Source: an uncultured Chloroflexia bacterium (GTDB taxonomy: Bacteria > Chloroflexota > Limnocylindria > Limnocylindrales > CSP1-4). Taken from it: DNA of 64,000 nucleotides. Position numbers and translations under genes: made by a program. The stretch spans positions 224,001 to 288,000 of the forward strand of contig CAVQJC010000006.1 of NCBI GenBank assembly GCA_963712745.1, read 5' to 3'. The notes below the pieces were generated by a model, which saw nothing but the letters and a program-made list of their open reading frames with translations, did no database searches and was not told where the DNA came from. Of the stretch, positions 4,888 through 63,904 are shown piece by piece; position 1 is the first letter of the stretch, and the number at the start of each line of letters is the position of its first letter.

Positions 4888-5184
4888 TCAGACGCGGATG
4901 AAGGTGAACACCGAGGCCGCCGCGAGACAACCTGCCGCGGCCATCGCGAAGATCCCGCCCATGGCCGCGCCCAGCAACGAGCCGCCGGTCCGGCCCCAGC
5001 GTGCGTCCTTCAACGCCCGCGTCAGGAACCAGGCGGAGATGAAAGCCAGCGTCAGGCCGAGAACGGCAAGACCGGCGACGGTGAAGGCGATGTTCTGGCC
5101 GGAGCGGTCGAGGATGAGGCCGTAGAGGACGACGAGTCCCGAGGCGACGAGGACGACCACGACCGCGATGCGTACGAGCGCCAC
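4888..5184 (-). CDS. Small membrane protein, 3 TM helices
   Basis: Hydrophobic ORF downstream of the GH13 gene; GTG start chosen. Confidence 0.7.
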   Translation of the reverse strand: MALVRIAVVVVLVASGLVVLYGLILDRSGQNIAFTVAGLAVLGLTLAFISAWFLTRALKDARWGRTGGSLLGAAMGGIFAMAAAGCLAAASVFTFIRV

Positions 5185-5237
5185 GGACCGAGTATAGGTA
5201 CGCCCGCCGATGTGGGCCGACGAGCAGCCGTCCGCCC

Positions 5238-6782
5238 TCAACCGAGCCGGACGACCACGCCGTCACGCCCGGGCAGGCTCACCCGCAGGTTCCCTGCGAC
5301 CACGCGGGCCGACCGTTCGCCTGGAGCACCTCCGCTCAGCTCCACGAGCCGGGCAGTACCAGCGTCGAAGGGCAGCGTCACATCCCAGTCGAGGGCGTGG
5401 GTCTCGGCGTTGGCCACGACCACGAAGGCGTCCTGGCCATGACGCCGCAGATAGGCGACAGCGGCGCCCGCGGTCCCGAGCAGCGACAGCTCCCCGTCGC
5501 GCAGAGCCGGGCTCGAATGGCGCAAGGCGATGAGGTCGGCCAACCACCCGTTCGGCGCTCGCTGCCACTGGCCCGGATCCTCGGGGAAGGCGCGCCGGCA
5601 CTGCGGGTCCATGGAGCCTTGCATGCCGATCTCGTCGCCGTAGTAGACGCAGGGGGCGCCTGGCAGGGTCATCTGCAGGAGCATGGCCAGCCGCATCGAA
5701 TCGAGGTCACCGCCGCAGAGCGTCAAGGCCCGCGGCGTGTCATGGGAGCCCAGCAGGTTGAGCTGGACGGCGGTCACGGCCGGGTCATTGAGCCGCCGCA
5801 GCTCGTCGATCCGCCCCCACAGACCCTCACCGTCGAGAGGCACCACCGCATGCAGTCCCTGGTAGCCCACCGGGATGGGCTGGGACGTGTCCCATCGCTC
5901 CTGCGCGGCGAACCCGAGCATGGCCCGCGTCAGCGGGTAGTTCATGAAGGCGTCGAACATGCCGCCGGCAAGCCAGTCGGGCTTGTGCACCCAGACCTCC
6001 GCCACGAGGTAGGCCTCGGGGTTCACCGCGCGCACCCGCTGGTGGAACGCACGCCAGAAGTCGGCCCCCACCTCCTCGGCCACGTCCAGGCGCCAACCGT
6101 CGATACCGAAGCGGATCCAGTGCTCGGCGACGTCGAGGATGAACGCGCGGGCGTGCGGCTCGTCCAGGTCGATCTTGGGCAGCTTGGGCAGATCCCACCA
6201 GGCTTCGTAACCGAGGATCTCCCTCGACACCGATCCCATCGGTGCCCCCGCCGCGTGCCGTGCTTCGATCTGGGCGGTCTGTGCGGCCGAGGGGAACGGA
6301 CTCAGCTCCTGGGTCCCCGCGAGCACGCCCTCCGAGAGATGGAACCAGTCGCGATACGGAGAATGGCGCCCGTTCTCGAGCACATGATGGAAGGGCCACC
6401 AGCCACGGCCGGAGTGGTTGAAGACGCCATCCAACACGACCCGCATGTCGCGCCCGTGGGCTTCGTCGAGCAGCACACGCAGCGCCTCGTTGCCGCCGAG
6501 CAGCGGGTCGACCGTGTAGTAGTCGTCGGTGTGATAGCGGTGGTTGGAGGCGGAGGCGAAGACCGGGTTCAGGTACAGCGCCGTGATGCCCAGACCCCGG
6601 AGTCGGTCAAGGTGGGATACGAGGCCGTAAAGGTCGCCGCCCTTGAACCCGTCGGTGGTGGGCTCGGCAGCCCAGGCTTCCAGCTCCCCCGGGGCCTCGA
6701 CACGGCCGCTCCGGGCCAGCCGGTCCGGAAGGACCTGGTAGAAGACGGCGTCTCTGACCCAGGCCGGCGTCTCGATCCTCAT
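5238..6782 (-). CDS. GH13 neopullulanase/cyclomaltodextrinase-like glycoside hydrolase
   Basis: DAVFYQ, GGDLYG, SNHRYHT, VLDGVFNH, GIDGWRLDVA, YLVAEVW, NLLGSHD, YYGDEIG. Confidence 0.95.
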   Translation of the reverse strand: MRIETPAWVRDAVFYQVLPDRLARSGRVEAPGELEAWAAEPTTDGFKGGDLYGLVSHLDRLRGLGITALYLNPVFASASNHRYHTDDYYTVDPLLGGNEALRVLLDEAHGRDMRVVLDGVFNHSGRGWWPFHHVLENGRHSPYRDWFHLSEGVLAGTQELSPFPSAAQTAQIEARHAAGAPMGSVSREILGYEAWWDLPKLPKIDLDEPHARAFILDVAEHWIRFGIDGWRLDVAEEVGADFWRAFHQRVRAVNPEAYLVAEVWVHKPDWLAGGMFDAFMNYPLTRAMLGFAAQERWDTSQPIPVGYQGLHAVVPLDGEGLWGRIDELRRLNDPAVTAVQLNLLGSHDTPRALTLCGGDLDSMRLAMLLQMTLPGAPCVYYGDEIGMQGSMDPQCRRAFPEDPGQWQRAPNGWLADLIALRHSSPALRDGELSLLGTAGAAVAYLRRHGQDAFVVVANAETHALDWDVTLPFDAGTARLVELSGGAPGERSARVVAGNLRVSLPGRDGVVVRLG

Positions 6783-6841
6783 GGCCGCAGGGTATCGCCT
6801 CCGACTCCGAGCCGGCGCGCCGGCGTGGGACAATCGAGCCC

Positions 6842-7216
6842 ATGTGGGAGACGGTCAAAGCGATGCCGCCGGGCGTGCTCTTCTTCATGGGCTATGCCTT
6901 CGTCGTGCTCTCGGTCCTGGGGTTGTTCATGTCCCGTGTCATCGACGAGGCCGTGCAGGCGCCGATCTCGTTCATCGGGATCGTGTGGATGGCGTTGCTG
7001 GCATACCTCATCTTCACCATGACGCTGGTGCTGCAGAAGAAGCAGGCTGCCTACGGGCTCTCGCTGGGCCTGACCTCGCTCTTGCTGCCGCTGGCCGCCG
7101 TGCTGCTCTTCGCGCCGGCCGGCTGGATCATCTCGATCGCGGCCATCGTGCTCTTCGCGGTCGTGGTCCTGTCGCTGCGGCGGCCGCGCAGTCGCGCCTG
7201 GTTCTCGGAGCCGTAG
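6842..7216 (+). CDS. Membrane protein, 4 TM helices
   Basis: 124-aa hydrophobic ORF. Confidence 0.75.
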   Translation: MWETVKAMPPGVLFFMGYAFVVLSVLGLFMSRVIDEAVQAPISFIGIVWMALLAYLIFTMTLVLQKKQAAYGLSLGLTSLLLPLAAVLLFAPAGWIISIAAIVLFAVVVLSLRRPRSRAWFSEP

Positions 7217-7218
7217 GC

Positions 7219-7878
7219 GTGAGCGCGATGGGTGGTCGCCGACGCTGGGTCATCCTCGACGTGGGCGAGACCATCATCGACGAGTCGCGCTTCTGGCGAG
7301 CCTGGGCTGACGAGCTGGGCATCGCGGAGATGACGTTCATGTCCGTGTTCGGGGCCATCGTCGCCCGTGGTCAGGGCTATCAGGACATCGCGAGCTACTT
7401 CGACATCGCCGACTGGCGGCTCCACCGCGAGGCGGTCGACGCACGCATCGGTGGCTTCACGGCGGAAGATCTCTATCCCGACGTCGTGCCGGCCATGCGC
7501 GCTCTTGGTGAGCGAGGCTATCGAGTCGCGGTCATGGGCAACCAGCCGGCCGAACGACACGCTCAGCTGCAGGCGATCGGCGTGCGGCCTGAGGTGATGG
7601 CCATGAGCGAGTCGATGGGTCCCATGAAACCCGATCGGGCATTCTTCGCAGCCGCCCTCGCTCTGCTCGGCAACCCCGATCCCGGCTCCGTCGCGTACGT
7701 GGGCGACCGCATCGACAACGACGTGGTCCCCTCCTCGGTCGCGGGTATGCGCGCCATCTGGCTGCGTCGCGGTCCCTGGGGCATCGTTCCGATCGGCGAA
7801 CCACCCGAGGCCGACCTGGTGGTCGACTCGCTCACCGAGCTGGCAGCCCGCATCGATGAGGCCTGGAGCGATAGCTAG
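7219..7878 (+). CDS. HAD-family hydrolase
   Basis: LDVGETIID motif I, KP motif III, YVGDRIDND motif IV. Confidence 0.9.
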   Translation: MSAMGGRRRWVILDVGETIIDESRFWRAWADELGIAEMTFMSVFGAIVARGQGYQDIASYFDIADWRLHREAVDARIGGFTAEDLYPDVVPAMRALGERGYRVAVMGNQPAERHAQLQAIGVRPEVMAMSESMGPMKPDRAFFAAALALLGNPDPGSVAYVGDRIDNDVVPSSVAGMRAIWLRRGPWGIVPIGEPPEADLVVDSLTELAARIDEAWSDS

Positions 7879-8846
7879 GCGTCGGCCGGCACCGGCAGCT
7901 CGGCCAGTCGAGCCACCGTGTCCCACAGCCAGCGACGCTCGGCCGCATCGAGGCGGGTCATCGGCGCTCGGTCGAAGGGTCTGGGCCGTCGGTCGAGGTA
8001 GAGCCGGCCGTCGGGGCCGGGCACGGACGCGGCGGCCAGCCAGGTGATGGTGTCTACGGCCTGTGCGGGCGTGCGCAGCAGCGGCCGCATCAGCCGATAG
8101 AAGCCGGGCAGCTGCTCGGCCAGGCCGGGCGTGTCAGCCCAGCCGGGATGCATGGCATCGAAGCGCACGTTGCCGCGGTAGCGCCGCGCCCACTCACGGA
8201 TGAGCGCCGTCGCGGCCCGCTTGGCTCGGGCATAGGCGATGGTGCCGTTGAACCCGCCACGTTCGAACTGCAGGTCGTCGAGCGGCAGCGCCTGAAAGTA
8301 CATGCCACCGGAGACCACCGTGATGACGCGGCCGTCGCCGGAGGCCTCGAGCATCGGCAAGAGCCCATCGATGAGGGCGAACGGACCCACGACCATGGTG
8401 GCGAAGGTAGCCTCCAGGCCCTCGTCGGTCTCGATCCGCTGCTCATGGATGGCACCGGCGCTGTCGACGAGCACGTCCAGCCTTGGCTCTGCCTCCGATA
8501 TGCGCTCCACGACCTGGTGAACACTCTGGAGCGAGGACATGTCTGCCACGAAGAGGGGAAAGCGATCCTCGCCATGACGCTCGACGAGTTCAGCGCGGAC
8601 ACGTGCGAGACGCTCGTCGTTGCGTCCCACGAGGATGACGCGGGCGCCGCGCCCGGCCATGGCCTCCGCAGTCGCCCGACCGAGCCCGGACGTCGGCCCG
8701 GTGATGAGCACGGCCTTCCCGGCCAGCGCATCGGACGCAGGCTCTGCCCAGTCGAACAGCCGTCGGCGCAACTGGTAGCCGGGGCGGCTGAAGCTGCCGA
8801 CGATGCTCAGCTCGAGGAAGCCGTCGACCAGGCTGCTAGCGTCCAC
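7875..8846 (-). CDS. Short-chain dehydrogenase/reductase (DHRS12-like)
   Basis: ITGPTSGLG, VSGGMY, YARAK, MHPGWADTPG. Confidence 0.9.
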   Translation of the reverse strand: MDASSLVDGFLELSIVGSFSRPGYQLRRRLFDWAEPASDALAGKAVLITGPTSGLGRATAEAMAGRGARVILVGRNDERLARVRAELVERHGEDRFPLFVADMSSLQSVHQVVERISEAEPRLDVLVDSAGAIHEQRIETDEGLEATFATMVVGPFALIDGLLPMLEASGDGRVITVVSGGMYFQALPLDDLQFERGGFNGTIAYARAKRAATALIREWARRYRGNVRFDAMHPGWADTPGLAEQLPGFYRLMRPLLRTPAQAVDTITWLAAASVPGPDGRLYLDRRPRPFDRAPMTRLDAAERRWLWDTVARLAELPVPADA

Positions 8847-56316: not shown

Positions 56317-56523
56317 ATGGGCGTCATCATCATCCGTGAGATGGTCGGCAGCAGCCCTGAGTCGTGGAGCGTTGCAGCCGCAGAGGCCGTCGCTCGTGCG
56401 TCTTTGACCGTGCGCAATATCCGCCACGTGGAAGTTGTCCGCCATACGGCTCGTGTCGAGGACGGGCGGATCGCCGAGTACGAAGCAGAACTCAAGATCT
56501 TCTTCGAGTACGAGGGTACCTAA
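56317..56523 (+). CDS. Dodecin-family protein
   Basis: EMVGSSPESW..A...AV.RAS.TVRNI...EV...DGRIAEY. Confidence 0.85.
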   Translation: MGVIIIREMVGSSPESWSVAAAEAVARASLTVRNIRHVEVVRHTARVEDGRIAEYEAELKIFFEYEGT

Positions 56524-56529
56524 GGCCAC

Positions 56530-56538
56530 TTATCCACA
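56530..56538 (+). promoter_or_regulatory. Perfect DnaA box
   Basis: TTATCCACA in a short intergenic gap. Confidence 0.5.
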
Positions 56539-56554
56539 GCGTGGTAAGCGCGAG

Positions 56555-59500
56555 ATGAGCGCGTCTCACGATGATGCGCCTATGCCCGAGTCGGTGAGCT
56601 CCGAGCGCACTTCCGACGTCCAGCCGCAAGCGGCTGGAGCGTCATACATCTCTGTCCAGGCCGGGGACGTTGACCCCCACCCGTCGGGCCTGGCCATCAT
56701 CGCCAGCAAGATCAGTCCAGCCACGCCGGCACGATCCGTGCTCACGCGCCGGCGATTGTCCGAGTGGTTCGGCCAGCAAGTGCGGGCGCGGCTGATCCTG
56801 GTCTCAGCTGAAGCTGGCTACGGCAAGACGACGTTGCTCAGTGAGTTCGCGCTGGAAACGCGCGACAGGTGCGTGTGGTATCGGATCGAAACGTCGGACG
56901 GCGACTGGATCACGTTCCTCAGCTACATGGTCGCGACCTTGCGCGGGATCTCGCCGGACTTCGGCCGCTCGACGGAAGCACTTCTGCGCAACGTGGCGGC
57001 CATGGGCTCATCGAGGGAGATCGTGCTCGGCCAGTTCCTCGCGGACCTGAGTGCGCTCGATATCAGCCGGGTGGCCGTGATCCTCGACGACTACCACCTG
57101 GTGGAGGCCTCGTCCGACGTGCGCATGATCATGGGACGCATGCTCGAACGGGCGCCTGACGGGATGTACTTCATCCTTGCCGGTCGTGGAAGGCCCAACC
57201 TGGGACTCGGCCGGCTCCTGGCGCAGGGGCGCGTATCTGAGCTCACCATCGACGATCTGCGCTTCACGCGCGCAGAGATCGTAGAGCTGTTCTCCACCGT
57301 CTACGGGCAGCCACTCGATGACGAAGCCTGCCAAGTCATCGCCACTCGGACTGAGGGGTGGGCCGCCAGCCTGCAACTGGTCTCGGCCTCCATCGCCGTC
57401 AGCCAGCCTGAAGAGGTATCGGCCTTCATCGATGCCTTGAGCGGTGCTACGGGGCCGATCTACGAGTTCCTCGCTGAGGAGGTGCTCACGCGCTTGTCAA
57501 CACGGACCCAGCTGATCCTCACGCATGCGTCACTCGTCGATCACGTCCGTCCGGAGTTCGTCGTGGCGGCGCTCTCGGTGACATCCTCTGAGCCGGATCG
57601 CGCGGCTGTCGAGCGTGCCCTCGACGAGGTGGAGACGTTGGGACTGCTCGGTCATCGAGGCAATGCCGCGGGAGGGCGCCGACTCCATCCCCTCTTCCAG
57701 GAGTTCCTGCAGGTCCACCTGCAACGTGACTCGTCTCCGGGTCAGGTCAGGGCCATGCACCACGCCATCGCAACGGAAGCCATCCATGTCGATTGGCTCC
57801 TGGCTGCGCGCCACTTCGCTCTGGCCGAAGAACCAGACGTGGCCATGGATGTCCTCGGGTCCGCGGCGAGTGAAGCGCTGGGCACGGGTGCCTGGGGCGC
57901 GGCGGTCGAGATCGTGGAGTTGATGCCGGAAACGTCCCCACCGACAGCCGTCAAGGTGATCCAGGCACGCGCCCTGATTAGCGACGGCTTTCCCGACAAC
58001 GCACTCGAGGTGCTCGAGGGCATCGACAGGAGCGGGCTCTCGTCGGAGGAACGCGGACTCGTCGGGCTCACCGCCGCGGCGATCCACCACATGAACGGAG
58101 ACGCAGGCCTCCTCACCAGCGAGGTCGAGGCTGTCGCCGACGATACCCAGGTTCCGGCGCCGCTCCGGGACGTCGCCGTCTCCTGGCGCAGGCTGCTGCA
58201 CGCGATCTCGGCGGCAGCATCTCCGATGCCGTGCAATCACTCCGTCACCTCGCGGTTGACCAGCGTCGGGACGGACTCCACTACTTCGCGGTGTCACGCT
58301 TCACAACTCCGCGTACGCGGAGCTGGCTCGCGGTAACTACCAACACGCACGAAACCTGGCGTCAGAGGCGGTTGAGCACCTGGAGCGCACTGAGGACGCA
58401 TCGGGCATCATCGCCTCGACGTGCTCCAGTCGCAGCGACCGCCACCGCGGAGCTGGAGATACTCGAGAGAGGGACTTCGACTTGGCCATCTCGACTGCGA
58501 TGCGGCCGGACGCTACGGCGGACGCAATCGCGGACGCGGCATACATGCATGCTGTGTGCGGACGTCGGATCGAAGGCGAGATCGCTCCTCGCCAGGCTTG
58601 AGCGAGGTGACGCTCGCTGGTCCCGCGAACTGGCGACAGAGCGCCAGCGTCTCTACGCGACCATCGCGCTGCCCTGGCGAGGCGAAGGCAGGCTCAGGAC
58701 GCCGACAGGGCACGTCGACGCTCGATAGCCTGGAGTCGCAGATTATCGACGCACAATCCCGGAGGCAGTTCTCGCTGCCACTCTCGCGGTAATGAGGCGC
58801 GCTCCCGAGGCGCAGGACGCCACTTGCACAGGCGGCCCGTGGAGGCTTGCGGCAGGACAGAACGCCTGGCGATGGCTGGCACGCGCACGAATACTCGAGG
58901 CCGCAGCTCAGCGCGACGGCAGCGGGCCCTCGCACTCTGGATTCGGAGAGTGAAGAGGGTCGGCGCTCGCTATTCTGGAGCTGGCGGACGTGATTGCAGC
59001 CGGCGATAGGCACCCTGGTGCTCTCTTCCCGACGCGCTCGAGCGCTCCATCCTTCGCGAGCCATCTCGGTGGGTACCAGCGCTTCGTCGCCAGAGTCCAG
59101 ATATGGAACAGGACGAGGACGCGAGTGCTGCGGCGTCGCTCTCGCCCGCTTCGGCTCGCCGACGACGCCCAAGTTCTTCGTGACTTTGAACGCTCGGCCG
59201 ATGGCAAGTCACGGCGTCGGGATGGCGACACAGCTGATCCGCCGGGTTAGTCCGACTGTCCGTGTCCACGACCTCGGTCTCACAAGTTACGAAATCGGCG
59301 ACCGTATCGTGACTCTTACAGACACTCGGCGAAAGTCGGCCGCTCTATTGCTCTACTTGGTGACACGGCCAGGTTTGGCGGCAACACGCGAGCAGGTGAT
59401 GGACAGCCTGTGGCCAGACCAGAACCCGAAGTCAGCCACGAACAGCCTCCACCAGACCGTCTTCTTCCTTCGCCGAGATCTCGAGCCTTGGTATGAGGAC

Positions 59501-59997
59501 GGCTCCACTGCCGACTATGTTCACATGGAGACCGATTTGGTGTTCCTCGACAAGGACTTGTTCCAGGTCGACAGCGTGGCGTTCTCGCGACAGGCGTCAG
59601 ACATCTTGTCGACCGGCACCGCAATGGCGCGCGAGGCCGGAGATGCTCGCGCTCTACCAGGGCAGCTTCGCGCCCGAGTTCGAGTACGAGGAGTGGGCCG
59701 AGGAGTGGAGGACGACGCTCCACGGTACGTTTCTTCACCTAGCCCACGCGACCTCGATTGCGCTGGTGGACGTCAGGCGCTACACCGAGATGCATCGACG
59801 TACTGTCGCCGATTGCAGCGCTCGATCCCACTGCGTTCGAACTCCGGGCACGACTGGTTGCGTGTCTCGCCAGAGTCGGCGCGGTTGACGCAGCACAGGC
59901 GCACTATCGAAGCATGGCATCGGCTCACGAACGGGACTTGGGTCTGCCCGCTCGTTCATACGAGGAAATCGTCAAGGGACTATCGGACTCACGCTGA
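56555..59997 (+). CDS. MalT-like ATPase/TPR regulator with C-terminal SARP wHTH and BTAD domains (several frameshifts after ~58200)
   Basis: AEAGYGKTT, VILDDYH, TEGWAA; LLLYLVTR...REQVMDSLWP...SLHQTVFFLRR; LALYQGSF...EEWAEEWR; ERDLGLP in successive frames. Confidence 0.8.
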
Positions 59998-60207
59998 CTA
60001 GTCGTACGTACTAGTACTTATAGGGCCCCGAGCCACCCCGTACCTAACCTTGCCCATGCAACAGTCCCCCGAGGCTGAAGCAACGACCACGGAGCGGGAC
60101 TAGGTCCGCATCGAAGGGCTCGAGAGAGGGGACCTTCGAAGTCAAGCCCGAGAAGCGCTCCCCATCAAGCCGGACGCGGTTTCCGCGCCAGGCACGAGGG
60201 GAAACCG

Positions 60208-60339
60208 ATGAATCCCAACGGCAACAGTCAAGCCCTGGTAGTCGATATGCCTCGCAATCTCTTGTCGAGGCTCACGCTGCTTTCGACTCTTCTCGCGACA
60301 CTCGTGGTCGCGGGCAGCGCGGGCATCAGACCCATCTGA
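60208..60339 (+). CDS. Unannotated 43-aa signal-peptide-like ORF (alternative start 60247, 30 aa)
   Basis: GAGGGG RBS; MNPNGNSQALVVDMPRNLLSRLTLLSTLLATLVVAGSAGIRPI*; below the ORF-track cutoff. Confidence 0.6.
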   Translation: MNPNGNSQALVVDMPRNLLSRLTLLSTLLATLVVAGSAGIRPI

Positions 60340-60351
60340 AGGGACTAGCGC

Positions 60352-60380
60352 ACTCCCAGTACCAAGGTTGGATGGGGAGT
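60352..60380 (+). terminator. Imperfect hairpin after the small ORF
   Basis: ACTCCC...CCAA/TTGG...GGGAGT. Confidence 0.35.
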
Positions 60381-60438
60381 TGACAGCTATCAATCGAGAT
60401 ACTGAGCGGCCTCCTTGCTTCCACGGTCAGGAGTCGCG

Positions 60439-61823
60439 TTGCACTTGTCAAGACACCTTCGGATTCTTCTGGTAGTCGTTCCTCTGGCGGCTGTCACGCT
60501 GCTCGCGTGCGAGTTGGTCGTATGGCCCATCGATGAGTTTGATGGGCCTCTTGTGGTTGGTCGCCTCGCCTTCTGGGTCGCGGTCACTCTCCTAGCGTCT
60601 GCCTCACCTGTGCACGTGCCGCGCGGCTCGATGGTGAGCGTCGCCGCTGCCCCAATCATCGCGGCGGGCATGCTGGGCGGTCCTACAGCAGCCGCCGTGG
60701 TGGGCGTCTTTGGCACTCTCGAGGTTCGAGAGCTCCGGGGCCAAGTCCCTTGGTATGGGGTGGTGTACAACCACTCGATCGCCGTGGTCGCCGCCGTGGC
60801 ATCCGGGCGGTGTACGAAACCAGTCGTGCGGCGGGGGAGCATCGCCAGCACGAGCGGGCTGGTGGGGCGGCGTGGCGGGCGTGCATCGTCTTCGTGCTCG
60901 TCAATCACCGTCGCTATCCTCGCTTGCGGTCGCTCTCCGAGAGATGCGACCATATCGCGGCCGTGCTGACGGTCCGATTTCCGGTCGTTCGGTCTGGGCC
61001 TCGTGCGGCCTAACCCCCATCGCCTGGCTGATGGCGCTGGCGTACCTCTTCGTCGGCCCCCTTGTCGTGTTCGCGGTCGCGCATGCCGCTGTACACGACT
61101 CGTGCCGCCTTCAAGGCCGTGGTCGATGTCCGTGACATGTTCACGCAGACCGTGAAGGCGCTCGCGTCCGCTATCGACGCGCGGGATCCGAGCACCAAGA
61201 AGCACTCGGAGCACGTCTCCGGCATCGCCGTCGAGATCGGCCGGGCCATGCATCTCAGCGAGCCCGAACTCGAACAGCTCGAGTGGGCCGGTCTGTTGCA
61301 CGATATCGGGAAGATTGGCATCCGTGACTCGGTCCTGCTCAAGCCCGAGAAGCTCACCCGCGAAGAGCGGATCCTTATGAACGAACACCCGGTCAAGGGT
61401 GAAGAGATCCTCAGGGATGTCGATCAGCTGGCGGCGGAACGCCCGCTCATCCGGCACCACCACGAGTGGTACAACGGCTCGGGCTACCCGGACCGCCTCA
61501 TCGGCGAGGAGATCCCACTGCTGGCACGGGTGCTCCACGTTGCCGACGCGTTCGAGGCCATGACGGCGTCGCGCCCGTACCGCCCGGTCCCGCTGACCAC
61601 CGAGGAAGCGCTCGAGGAACTCCAGCGCTACTCGGGCATCCAGTTCGATCCTGTCGTGGTCGATGCCTTCTCGCGCACGAAGACCGCGACGCAGGCCTCA
61701 CAGGATGATGACGAGCCGGGCGAGCCTGAACAGCAGCCGATAACGGTGCCCACGCTGGGCCAGGTCGCCGCTGCCAGGACCAAGGGCACACTGCCCGCGA
61801 GCTCAGCCCCCGCCGAGCCCTAG
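60439..61823 (+). CDS. Membrane-sensor HD-GYP protein (frameshifts in the TM region)
   Basis: AGGAG RBS and TTG start; multi-TM N-terminus; AIDARDPSTKKHS, LLHDIGK, HHHEWYNGSGYP, VADAFEAMT. Confidence 0.85.
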
Positions 61824-61912
61824 TCGGAGAGTCCCGAGCATATGGCGGGCTCAGCCCCGCAGACTTCCGAGCGCGAGCGACCCTGCCTGATCGCGTCCGG
61901 ACCTGAAGTCTG

Positions 61913-63904
61913 ATGCTGCTGATCGCGATCGCCCTGGGTGTCGTCGCCGGTCTCATGGCAGGTGGCCGGATCTCGAATCTCCTGTCGGCGCAGCTTCGCT
62001 ATGGCTGGCTTATCGTGGCTGGCCTGCTTCTGCGCGTGATCACGCAGTGGCTCATCGACCAGGGCGTCGACGTGGTCGATCAGTTGCGTCTGCCCCTGTT
62101 CACGCTCTCGTTCGGCTTGCTGGTGGTCGCCCTTTGGCTGAACCGCTCGCAGCCCGGACTGCTGCTCGCGATGGTGGGAGTGGCCGCCAACGGGATCGCC
62201 ATCCTCCTCAACGCCGGCTACATGCCCGTGTATCTGCCGGCGGTGGAGATGGCCGGTCTTACCTTGGCCGACCTGTCGCCCACCTTCAACGTGCTGCTAC
62301 CCGAGGAACTGGGACTCGATTTCCTGCTCGCTGGTGGGCCATTGGGCGACGTCCTGCCCATCGCTATCCCGCTGATCGCAAACGTCATCAGCATCGGCGA
62401 TGTCCTCCTCGCCGCTGGAGTGGGCTGGTATCTGTTCTCGGCCATCGCCCGCGGCTCGGCCGACCCCGAGTCGGGCGTGGTCTCGATGTGGAACGCCAAG
62501 CCTGCCGCTGTGGACCACCCAGTCTTCACGGCGGATCAGGCCGGCCTGGACCGCCCAGTCATCGGTGGCTCGGCCATGGGACCAGGCCTGGGCACGCCAT
62601 CGGCTTCCGAAGCGGTGGATGCAGTCACCGCGGAACCGCGGACGGTCGCCCCCGGCCTCGGCCAGCGGGTCCGGGAACACCCCTACATTCGACTAGCCCG
62701 CGATGCGCGCTTCTCAGCTTTCTGGCTGGCGGGCACGATCAGCCTGTTCGGCGACCGACTCCACCAGATCGCCCTCGGCGTGATGGTTCTCGGCGTCACG
62801 GGCTCGGCCATGCAGACCGGTTTCGTGTTCCTGGCGGCGACCCTGCCCAACCTCTTCCTCGGGCCGATCGCAGGGACGTTCGTGGACCGCTGGGATCAGA
62901 AGCACGTGCTGATCGTCAGCGACCTCATGCGCGCAGGACTCGTGCTGACGCTGCCCTTCGTGGCCGATATCAACATCTGGCTCGTCTACCCGGTCGTCTT
63001 CGTGGTCACGACCATCAGCCTGTTCTTCCGCCCGGCCAAGGCGGCCATCATCCCCCGCATCGTGCGGCGGGAGGACTTGACCCCGGCCAACGGCGCCATC
63101 TGGACGGGTGAGACGATGGCCGACATCGCGGGCTATCCACTGGCCGGCGTGTTCGTGGCATTTCTTGGCACCAATCTGGCCCTGGCCTTCTGGGTCAATT
63201 CGTTGACGTACGTCGTCAGCGCGGTCCTGCTCGCGGGGCTCGTGATCCCGCCGGCGGTCAGGGAGGTGGGCCCCCGTGTCAGCAGCGCGATGGATGCCTT
63301 CGTCGAGGAGTTGCGCGAGGGCTGGGAGTTCCTGCGCCACGACGCAGCCCTGTTCCAGAACACGCTCGTGAGCGTCGTCGCGCAGCTGACGGTCGGAGCC
63401 ACCCTGGCCCTGATGGTGGTCTACGCCCAGCGCTCGCTCGAGGGCGAGACGATCCCGTATCCCGAGAGCTACGCCGTCATCGAAGCGGCGATCGGCCTTG
63501 GCAACCTCGTCGGCGGGTTCGTCGTCGGTGCCATCGGGGCACGACTGCGCAAGGGCTGGTTGGTCATCACCGGCTTCGCGGTGATGGGAGTGGCCACGAT
63601 CATCCTGGGGCTGACTTCCAACGAGCTCGTGGCTGTCGGTGCGGCGGTGGTCGTGGGCGTGTTCAACCTGGTCTATGTCATCCCCAGCCAGACGCTCTTC
63701 GCCGAGCGTACGCCCGAGGGCATGATGGGACGCGTCGTTGCCATCCGCTCCAGCATCGTCATGGGTGCACTCACCGGGGCCATGGCTATCAGCTCCGGAC
63801 TCGCCGACCATGTCGATGCGGGCATGATCATCGCGGCCACAGGTGTCCTCACGGTCATCGCCGCGGTCGTCGCCACCTGGCTGCCGGCTGTACGTGACGC
63901 GTAG
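61913..63904 (+). CDS. DUF5317-like membrane domain fused to an MFS transporter (DHA3/macrolide-efflux-like)
   Basis: N-terminal ANGIAILLNAGYMPV...PLGDVL...VISIGDVLL; C-terminal FWLAGTISLFGD, AGTFVDRWD, MGRV, 12 TM helices. Confidence 0.85.
   Translation: MLLIAIALGVVAGLMAGGRISNLLSAQLRYGWLIVAGLLLRVITQWLIDQGVDVVDQLRLPLFTLSFGLLVVALWLNRSQPGLLLAMVGVAANGIAILLNAGYMPVYLPAVEMAGLTLADLSPTFNVLLPEELGLDFLLAGGPLGDVLPIAIPLIANVISIGDVLLAAGVGWYLFSAIARGSADPESGVVSMWNAKPAAVDHPVFTADQAGLDRPVIGGSAMGPGLGTPSASEAVDAVTAEPRTVAPGLGQRVREHPYIRLARDARFSAFWLAGTISLFGDRLHQIALGVMVLGVTGSAMQTGFVFLAATLPNLFLGPIAGTFVDRWDQKHVLIVSDLMRAGLVLTLPFVADINIWLVYPVVFVVTTISLFFRPAKAAIIPRIVRREDLTPANGAIWTGETMADIAGYPLAGVFVAFLGTNLALAFWVNSLTYVVSAVLLAGLVIPPAVREVGPRVSSAMDAFVEELREGWEFLRHDAALFQNTLVSVVAQLTVGATLALMVVYAQRSLEGETIPYPESYAVIEAAIGLGNLVGGFVVGAIGARLRKGWLVITGFAVMGVATIILGLTSNELVAVGAAVVVGVFNLVYVIPSQTLFAERTPEGMMGRVVAIRSSIVMGALTGAMAISSGLADHVDAGMIIAATGVLTVIAAVVATWLPAVRDA

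Follow-up and report, generated by a model that had tools for sequence, protein, structure and literature searches.

Signal peptidase II (LspA) recognizes a lipid-modified cysteine. In the AgrB/AgrD system a precursor peptide, a polytopic processing protein and a receptor with multiple transmembrane (TM) helices are encoded together, and small single-pass proteins such as MgrB (with PhoQ), AcrZ (with AcrB) and KdpF regulate or complete membrane sensors and pumps. Several LspA structures have been solved (5dir, 6ryo, 6ryp, and 9emz; MEROPS A8, PF01252; PDB). The MASE9 domain was defined in a preprint (bioRxiv 10.1101/2021.11.05.467447) whose accessible text gives its ligand as not known and HdgA as the sole studied member; in the accessible part of a second source (PMC6205966) the membrane proteins encoded by hdgA and hdgB are without a developmental phenotype, and it is suggested that activating signals were missing. 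Here we describe a gene (61913..63904, forward strand) in a stretch of 64,000 nucleotides from an uncultured Chloroflexia bacterium (the window; assembly GCA_963712745.1, contig CAVQJC010000006.1, positions 224,001 to 288,000) that joins the domain DUF5317 to a major facilitator superfamily (MFS) transporter domain and is the last gene of an operon that also encodes a micropeptide and a MASE9-type HD-GYP protein.

DUF5317 is a separate five-helix family and is not signal peptidase II. Its pair of outward-facing aspartates may bind the co-encoded micropeptide and cut it as an intramembrane aspartyl peptidase; we put this forward tentatively, as a reading that is somewhat more likely to be wrong than right. 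The two are a candidate peptidase pairing because DUF5317 has a set of invariant polar residues on its outer side and a local likeness to the LspA catalytic hairpin, and because it is inherited together with a micropeptide that looks like a signal peptide. The locus resembles AgrB/AgrD in that a small peptide, a polytopic membrane protein and a multi-TM sensor are found in one place, but there is no sequence or fold kinship to AgrB, the output is cyclic di-GMP (c-di-GMP) hydrolysis rather than a histidine kinase, and any released signal is putative here. As with MgrB, AcrZ, and KdpF, a one-helix peptide of about 30 residues is encoded together with the membrane protein that is its likely partner; the micropeptide differs from them in its small-residue motif, its very short tail, the protease-like site nearby and its twin leader open reading frame (ORF). 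The upstream gene, like the MASE9-HD-GYP proteins Thermotoga maritima TM1467 and Streptomyces venezuelae HdgA/HdgB, combines a multi-TM sensor with HD-GYP, whereas the accessible text of neither source above mentions DUF5317 or a micropeptide, and the window copy is in broken frames.

Conservation and topology of DUF5317 and its likeness to LspA

The gene is a single intact ORF in which DUF5317 is followed by a linker of ∼80 amino acids and a 12-helix-type MFS_3 domain. Pfam family PF17248 (DUF5317) covers residues 27–174 with an E value of 4e-24 and 85.8 bits (cut-off 25). A preliminary description of this DNA had ended the DUF5317 feature at 62460, which cuts through the one ORF (61913–62460 is the first 182 codons of the 663-amino-acid protein). 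On the other hand, the motifs that it quoted are all present in the translation of 61913–62482: N93-GIAILL-N100-AGYMPV (residues 93–106), GPLGD (D146, bp 62,348–62,350) and VISIGD (D163, bp 62,399–62,401).

The family is large. At least 1665 relatives of residues 1–190 are found at E ≤ 0.001 among 1.84 billion representatives scanned, and most family members are stand-alone DUF5317 proteins that lack MFS; in a sample of the phylum, 64 of 201 genomes carry the domain. Residues N93, N100, G102, P105, D146, S160, G162, and D163 are invariant in all 36 aligned stand-alone homologs, and the window protein has every one of them. A wider alignment is made up of the 82 homologs, out of 178 proteins, with a domain coverage of 85% or more; there D146, S160, G162, and D163 are again without exception, while N93 is kept in 81 and N100 and N77 in 80 each. 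The conservation of the two aspartates that the preliminary description named is thus borne out, and since these residues do not vary across 36 and 82 homologs the motif observation is real and beyond chance. The cytoplasmic loops are also strongly conserved in the 82-sequence alignment (G17, G18, and R29 in one; N77, R78, P81, and G82 in the other). The terms “DUF5317,” “PF17248” and “IPR035168” were found in none of the papers searched, and the ESM Atlas returned DUF5317 clusters only, with nothing left once PF17248 was skipped.

An AlphaFold2 (AF2) model of the domain, made from the 36-sequence alignment (pLDDT 90.3, pTM 0.83), has TM helices at residues 2–15, 31–49, 59–76, 83–99, and 161–180. 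The TM4–TM5 loop of about 60 residues (101–160) is modeled as four short strands and two short helices. D146 directly precedes a β-hairpin (148–150/157–159) and D163, 17 residues on, lies in the first turn of helix 5, so placed in the models that the two are probably close in space. Among the 82 sequences the loops TM1–2 and TM3–4 contain on average 2.87 and 1.24 Lys/Arg per sequence, respectively, and the loops TM2–3 and TM4–5 are acidic. This charge bias, together with the MFS domain that follows helix 5, indicates that the N-terminus is outside and the C-terminus inside, and therefore that N100, D146, S160, and D163 lie at the outer face of the membrane.

The preliminary description had proposed that DUF5317 looks like an LspA-type peptidase in which the two aspartates form an analogous dyad. 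As a statement of family membership and of overall fold this was not supported. There is no PF01252 match at E ≤ 0.01, and that profile touches just one of the 36 DUF5317 members, at E 2.5. LspA has four helices with both termini cytoplasmic, whereas DUF5317 has five and its N-terminus is outside (from the model and the charge bias), and its first three helices and a 45-residue loop insert are without an LspA counterpart. The residues that are invariant in a 25-sequence LspA alignment, from the motifs of helices 1–3 and the β-cradle (D38, K42, N79, G81, F84, G130, N134, and R138), have no equivalents in DUF5317, and hhalign gives no consistent pairing beyond the last third. Foldseek searches with the whole domain found no PDB match at E ≤ 0.001 (best E 3.8), and the C-terminal part alone gave a best E of 3.5; in a whole-domain VIA-align search LspA was not among the 50 rows listed, though such an absence is no proof of different folds. 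Sequence and profile searches of PDB chains gave no relevant match. DUF5317 also differs from LspA in its setting, since its operon is concerned with c-di-GMP and, in this protein, a transporter is joined to it.

What remains of the proposal is local: the invariant aspartate pair and the layout around it. Both proteins are small, polytopic and membrane-embedded, with two invariant aspartates 17–19 residues apart, the first within the final outer loop and the second where the last helix begins (D146 and D163 in DUF5317); both have a conserved glycine six residues past the second aspartate and asparagines in the preceding helix, and the peptide linked to DUF5317 resembles a signal peptide with small residues at its end. 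In an hhalign comparison of the 36-sequence DUF5317 alignment with 25 LspA sequences (score 29.5, P 0.0011, probability 20.8%, 97 columns), D146 falls on the Asp of the LspA V-V-D-F motif and D163 on that of F-N-x-A-D. The 82-sequence alignment scores 27.7 over the helix of the second Asp, and a third alignment scores 23.4 over 44 columns, again with both aspartates on the catalytic ones. Thus both land on both in two of three alignments, and P is 0.001–0.003 over the three. Controls fall below these scores: reversed profiles give 21.0 and 22.5, 40 column shuffles at most 22.2, and decoys made from the MASE9 and MFS halves of the same loci 10.7–20.3, while LspA scores 13.0–13.5 against those decoys. 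When the model of residues 80–186 (pLDDT 90.3) is compared with LspA 6ryp_A residues 91–159, the root-mean-square deviation is 2.0 Å over 66 residues with 23% identity (the PDB record confirms that 6ryp is a lipoprotein signal peptidase). Taken together, the profile and structure matches support the view that the last helix-loop-helix shares a local layout with LspA on an otherwise different scaffold. The HHpred/Foldseek check that had been suggested finds no whole-domain match, but a weak, yet reproducible, local LspA signal in the last third of DUF5317.

That signal is all that would favor placing DUF5317 within the LspA family (MEROPS A8), as a diverged but genuine member that acts on lipoproteins or on peptides with a lipobox. 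We consider this very improbable, given the lack of a PF01252 match, the five helices with the N-terminus outside, and the LspA invariants that have no counterpart. Moreover, this genome encodes an ordinary LspA elsewhere (111.3 bits; its catalytic aspartates are its own D146 and D164), and LspA is present in 40 of 41 genomes in a sample of the phylum (a tally that includes genome G038), far more widely than DUF5317 occurs, and the micropeptide linked to DUF5317 has no cysteine. Of three sub-threshold PF01252 matches in the phylum sample, the one that was inspected, at locus L034 (451–981, + strand; 23.9 bits) proved to be a short LspA-like ORF with altered motifs that is unrelated to DUF5317, and may be a degenerate LspA paralog. 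Even less credible is kinship with the GxGD-type aspartyl proteases, such as prepilin peptidase and presenilin, which the S-I-G-D sequence calls to mind by motif likeness alone. An hhalign comparison with 25 prepilin peptidase sequences (PF01478, Peptidase_A24) gave 10.7–18.1, which is decoy level, and the first motif position is an invariant Ser (82 of 82) and not Gly. Prepilin peptidases cut on the cytoplasmic side, whereas the DUF5317 site faces outwards.

The linked micropeptide

Of 15 loci from the class, the window included, 13 have a small ORF on the same strand that ends 46–185 bases short of the membrane HD-GYP gene. The 13 aligned micropeptides have 28–32 residues and consist of the initial Met, a basic stretch, one hydrophobic helix, the motif A-G-G-A-[S/G], and a tail of 4–5 residues; M1, G23, and A25 are invariant and R8 and G24 nearly so. 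In all ten pairs among five 32-codon micropeptide genes the nonsynonymous (pN) is lower than the synonymous (pS) proportion of differences, so the micropeptide is under purifying selection. The window copy has a basic N-terminus, one TM helix, the sequence A-G-S-A-G, and a four-residue tail. Its true start is probably the ATG at bp 60,247, as the ATG at bp 60,208 corresponds in the alignment to the start codon of a distinct, tiny leader ORF of the relatives. In most of them this leader has 6–10 codons and ends Lys-small-Trp/Phe-stop, with a tail of the same type as that of the micropeptide that follows (scripted extraction recovered it in 8 of 13 loci and, owing to nested starts, missed others that the alignment shows). 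In the window the frame of the leader ATG is shifted by one base from that of its AAG CCC TGG TAG end, and it runs on into the frame of the micropeptide. The leader ORF may encode a leader peptide or a second peptide, or may act as a stalling signal.

The preliminary description had pointed to a neighboring peptide with a lipobox mimic, VAGS, in which Ser takes the place of Cys. The peptide exists (ORF 60208..60339); it is not adjacent to the DUF5317 gene, but lies 1.6 kb upstream with the HD-GYP gene between. The mimic itself has not survived alignment: 12 of 13 relatives have Gly at this position, and it is G23 and A25 that do not vary, so the window Ser, the sole exception at G24, is not a conserved feature. 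None of the 13 aligned micropeptides has a Cys at or near the motif, and without one the micropeptide cannot carry the lipid that LspA recognizes.

The linkage extends well beyond the class. Among 16 loci with stand-alone DUF5317 from other families of the phylum, HD-GYP adjoins DUF5317 in 11, in forms that range from membrane proteins of 437–496 amino acids (one with a MASE9 Pfam match) through bare domains of 207–379 amino acids to PAS-GAF-HD-GYP and GGDEF-HD-GYP, and a STAND regulator of about 1070 amino acids (AAA-TPR-BTAD) is adjacent in 10. A regular expression for the specific tail found no micropeptide in these loci; a general scan for small ORFs with a single TM helix, whose candidates were inspected visually and accepted if they had a basic N-terminus, a single helix, a motif of small residues and a tail of short length, found a same-strand micropeptide in 13 of the 16, including four of the five that are without HD-GYP. 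These mostly end in [A/S]-G-A-[P/D/G] plus 4–9 residues. In L087–L094, L096, and L097 the micropeptide precedes DUF5317 and ends anywhere from 207 bases upstream of the called ORF to a 25-base overlap with it. No other neighbor recurs in the 16 loci beyond micropeptide, HD-GYP, and STAND; a GT2 glycosyltransferase, an AI-2E transporter, and an MgtE_N-CBS protein are found in some. At L093 the ORF after DUF5317 (5796–6293, + strand) scores 45.7 bits to the Frankia_peptide ribosomal-peptide family (cut-off 48) and an AMP-binding enzyme comes next.

The window's own genome has a second, stand-alone DUF5317 (L001; contig 20, 1426–2488, − strand), with a micropeptide tail that ends about 80–140 bases upstream and no HD-GYP within 1.5 kb. 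An ORF divergent from this gene reads as Nudix-like. In Paenibacillus thermotolerans (L132, 3501–6339) DUF5317 comes first, then two tandem, near-identical 35-amino-acid single-helix peptides and then a 620-amino-acid membrane GGDEF-HD-GYP, and thus the trio of micropeptide, DUF5317, and HD-GYP occurs in a Firmicute. Thermus thermophilus and Thermotoga maritima are further cultivable carriers named among control hits. Because the linkage persists in distant, paralog and Paenibacillus loci, the constant pair is micropeptide plus DUF5317, which c-di-GMP enzymes and the STAND regulator often accompany.

If the pair is a peptidase and its substrate, the parts might work together as follows. The asparagine-bearing helix ends at the outer face, the loop after it brings the first invariant Asp and the last helix starts with the second. 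The micropeptide's small-residue motif (G-A in the class) should lie at the same membrane face as this cluster, and the Asp pair would bind the micropeptide there, where its helix leaves the membrane. Cleavage would then free or trim the tail of 4–9 residues, and the fused MFS and the MASE9-HD-GYP might couple this to transport and to c-di-GMP turnover.

A number of points weigh against this scheme. Binding and catalysis are both steps that we infer, and DUF5317 is a candidate enzyme. The hhalign probabilities are just 10–21% and the largest alignment matches LspA over 24 columns alone, in the helix of the second Asp; the structural match proves nothing when taken by itself, because its Z score ties with those of unrelated two-helix hairpins. 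LspA needs a lipid-modified Cys, which the aligned micropeptides do not offer. An aspartyl mechanism leaves the invariant S160 unaccounted for, and the peptidase reading does not explain the MFS fusion either. The micropeptide was not detected in 2 of the 15 class loci or in 3 of the 16 distant ones, and its motif varies by lineage (G-G-A in the class, [AS]-G-A in the majority of distant loci, A-A-P next to the own-genome paralog, and T-S-G in Paenibacillus). Finally, the conserved cytoplasmic loops point to a partner inside the cell, which fits signaling or a scaffold as well as it fits an enzyme.

This last point leads to the reading of DUF5317 as a non-catalytic membrane partner that would hold the micropeptide, the MASE9-HD-GYP, or both, in the manner of a receptor, chaperone, or scaffold; the Asn/Asp/Ser cluster would bind the peptide tail, an ion, or a small ligand and the inner loops would relay information to the cytoplasm. 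We regard it as possible, though on the unlikely side. It accounts for the gene linkage equally well and for the strong conservation of G17, G18, R29, N77, R78, P81, and G82, it would give the HD-GYP proteins that lack a membrane domain the membrane anchor or sensor they would need, and neither model has a significant match to a solved enzyme fold. On the other hand, two invariant acids with Ser and Gly at the membrane interface point more typically to catalysis than to the binding of a variable tail; the tails do vary widely across lineages while the site is unchanged, and the local LspA-like layout would become a coincidence.

The MFS fusion and the operon

The transporter half matches PF05977 (MFS_3; 8e-24, 84.4 bits against a cut-off of 27) and PF07690 (MFS_1; 2.3e-29). 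No named NCBIfam transporter subfamily is above its cut-off, the top one being TIGR00900 with 209.7 bits against 319.6; below threshold, there are matches to efflux pumps and to the lysophospholipid-transporter domain found in Aas-type fusions. MFS_3 or MFS_1 lies behind DUF5317 in 24 of 47 long representatives, and one other has HD_5 and then DUF5317. In the phylum sample all frames of 620–753 amino acids belong to the window's own family or its sister family. A maximum-likelihood tree of 34 domains places 16 of the 17 rows labeled as fused in one clade (support 99/97). The 17th, L072, groups with the stand-alone paralog of the window's genome, and a clade of all 17 is rejected (p-AU 0.022); L072 had been labeled as fused by frame length alone and has no MFS match by tblastn. 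The sister of the fused clade, L095, has an 845-amino-acid HD-GYP-MFS_3 fusion (5669–8206, − strand), followed by a stand-alone DUF5317 (5078–5662, − strand) and an AI-2E family transporter. L095 is a second, independent fusion that joins the same three components.

Such a recurrent association with MFS_3 leaves some room for other chemistry or transport at the outer face. DUF5317 would then be a hydrolase or transferase of lipids or the cell envelope, or would hold an ion or metal site; it would act together with the MFS_3 domain on some different substrate, and the micropeptide would be no more than a co-regulated small subunit. The nearness of the MFS part to lysophospholipid transporters and efflux pumps would fit such a function, as would the glycosyltransferase and the AI-2E and MgtE_N-CBS proteins near some distant copies. 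We nevertheless judge it unlikely; the majority of the family stands alone without MFS, those neighbors do not recur, and similarity to lipid enzymes or channels is at noise level.

The gene order in the window is STAND regulator, micropeptide, MASE9-type HD-GYP, and DUF5317-MFS last (Table 1), in a 4.2-Mb metagenome-assembled genome (MAG) with a completeness of 84.6%. HD-GYP lies upstream on the same strand in all 16 fused loci (1.5 kb off in L072) and has a membrane domain in 14. In relatives it is one ORF of 450–484 amino acids at nine of the 13 loci listed and truncated at the other four. In the window the halves of this gene are in different frames, with at least three frames in all and an unreadable middle (60445–61083). 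Short contigs from four other public runs that are 98–99% alike differ from the window by seven single-base indels within 60806–61081, of which one is an insertion and six are missing bases; since the net change is −5, they bring both HD-GYP halves into one frame. The frame breaks are either assembly errors or strain-specific decay. That the upstream half of the operon had been lost by decay was considered and dropped, as the indel pattern fits assembly errors at least equally well. The STAND gene is likewise split, into ORFs of 633 (56435..58336) and 335 amino acids (58994..60001) that are in the same frame and separated by 658 bases, whereas it is a single ORF of 955–1145 amino acids in seven relatives. 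A partial relative that is 50% identical is labeled by NCBI as an Acidimicrobiales MAG. A search of sequencing runs with the window DNA listed no RNA run, and the top share among DNA runs was 0.16.

Table 1 Features of the DUF5317 operon in the window
Feature	Coordinates	Strand	Evidence
DUF5317-MFS_3 ORF, 663 amino acids	61913..63904	+	ORF and Pfam
DUF5317 domain, residues 1–181, five predicted TM helices	61913..62455	+	PF17248, AF2 model, loop charge bias
Outer half of TM4: N93, N100-x-G102-x-M-P105	62189..62227	+	36/36; N93 81/82, N100 80/82
D146 to S160-x-G162-D163, candidate active or binding site	62348..62401	+	Invariant in 82/82; hhalign to both LspA Asp in 2/3 alignments
MFS_3/MFS_1 domain, residues 264–659	62702..63889	+	PF05977, PF07690, sub-cut-off TIGR00900
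Micropeptide gene, 30 amino acids from ATG 60247 (43-amino-acid ORF from 60208)	60247..60339	+	Homologs in 13/15 loci, alignment, pN<pS
Leader ORF remnant (6–10 codons in relatives)	60208..60241	+	13-leader alignment, sequence, script extraction in 8/13
HD-GYP (HD_5) domain of the upstream gene	61062..61823	+	PF13487 1.9e-40; 62% identical to the L075 relative
N-terminal multi-TM part (MASE9-type) of that HD-GYP gene	60445..61082	+	Frames change; MASE9 Pfam match on one relative
STAND-type regulator (AAA ... Trans_reg_C), split	56435..60001	+	Single ORF in relatives

Between the STAND gene and the micropeptide the relatives carry a c-di-GMP-II riboswitch along with the tiny leader ORF. The riboswitch (RF01786) lies ahead of the leader and the micropeptide in all six relatives tested (L069, L070, L075, L076, L078, and L079), at 53.4–65.3 bits; five reach the gathering score of 53.5 bits and L076 is at 53.4. 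In the window there is no RF01786 match in 59000–62200 at E ≤ 1, nor in 59950–60300 at E ≤ 10. Elsewhere in the same genome there are 37 full-length, sub-threshold c-di-GMP-II matches (contigs 2, 4, 5, 6, 7, 8, 10, 15, 17, and 20), and all seven such loci that were tested pass the gathering score of the c-di-GMP-II-GCG (RF03170) or -GAG (RF03169) family. In each of the eight loci inspected (L099–L106) the match lies 12–19 bases 5′ of a start codon, mostly of genes for proteins with signal-peptide-like N-termini, and several are clustered. This c-di-GMP-II variant regulon is unusually large for one 4.2-Mb genome.

Implications for MASE9 sensors and membrane peptidases

In its fullest form the peptidase reading would make DUF5317 a new intramembrane aspartyl peptidase family, its LspA-like site carried by a different, five-helix scaffold, with the co-encoded, lipid-free micropeptide as dedicated substrate, whose released tail of 4–9 residues is sensed by MASE9-type enzymes while the MFS domain moves the product; that all of this is correct together we think rather improbable. 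Should the Asp pair be catalytic, a new membrane aspartyl peptidase family with a non-lipoprotein substrate would be added to those already known. If the whole scheme is true, it would constitute a peptide-to-c-di-GMP circuit that is present across several phyla and, in relatives, under the control of a c-di-GMP riboswitch, and the micropeptide would be the first candidate input for MASE9 sensors.

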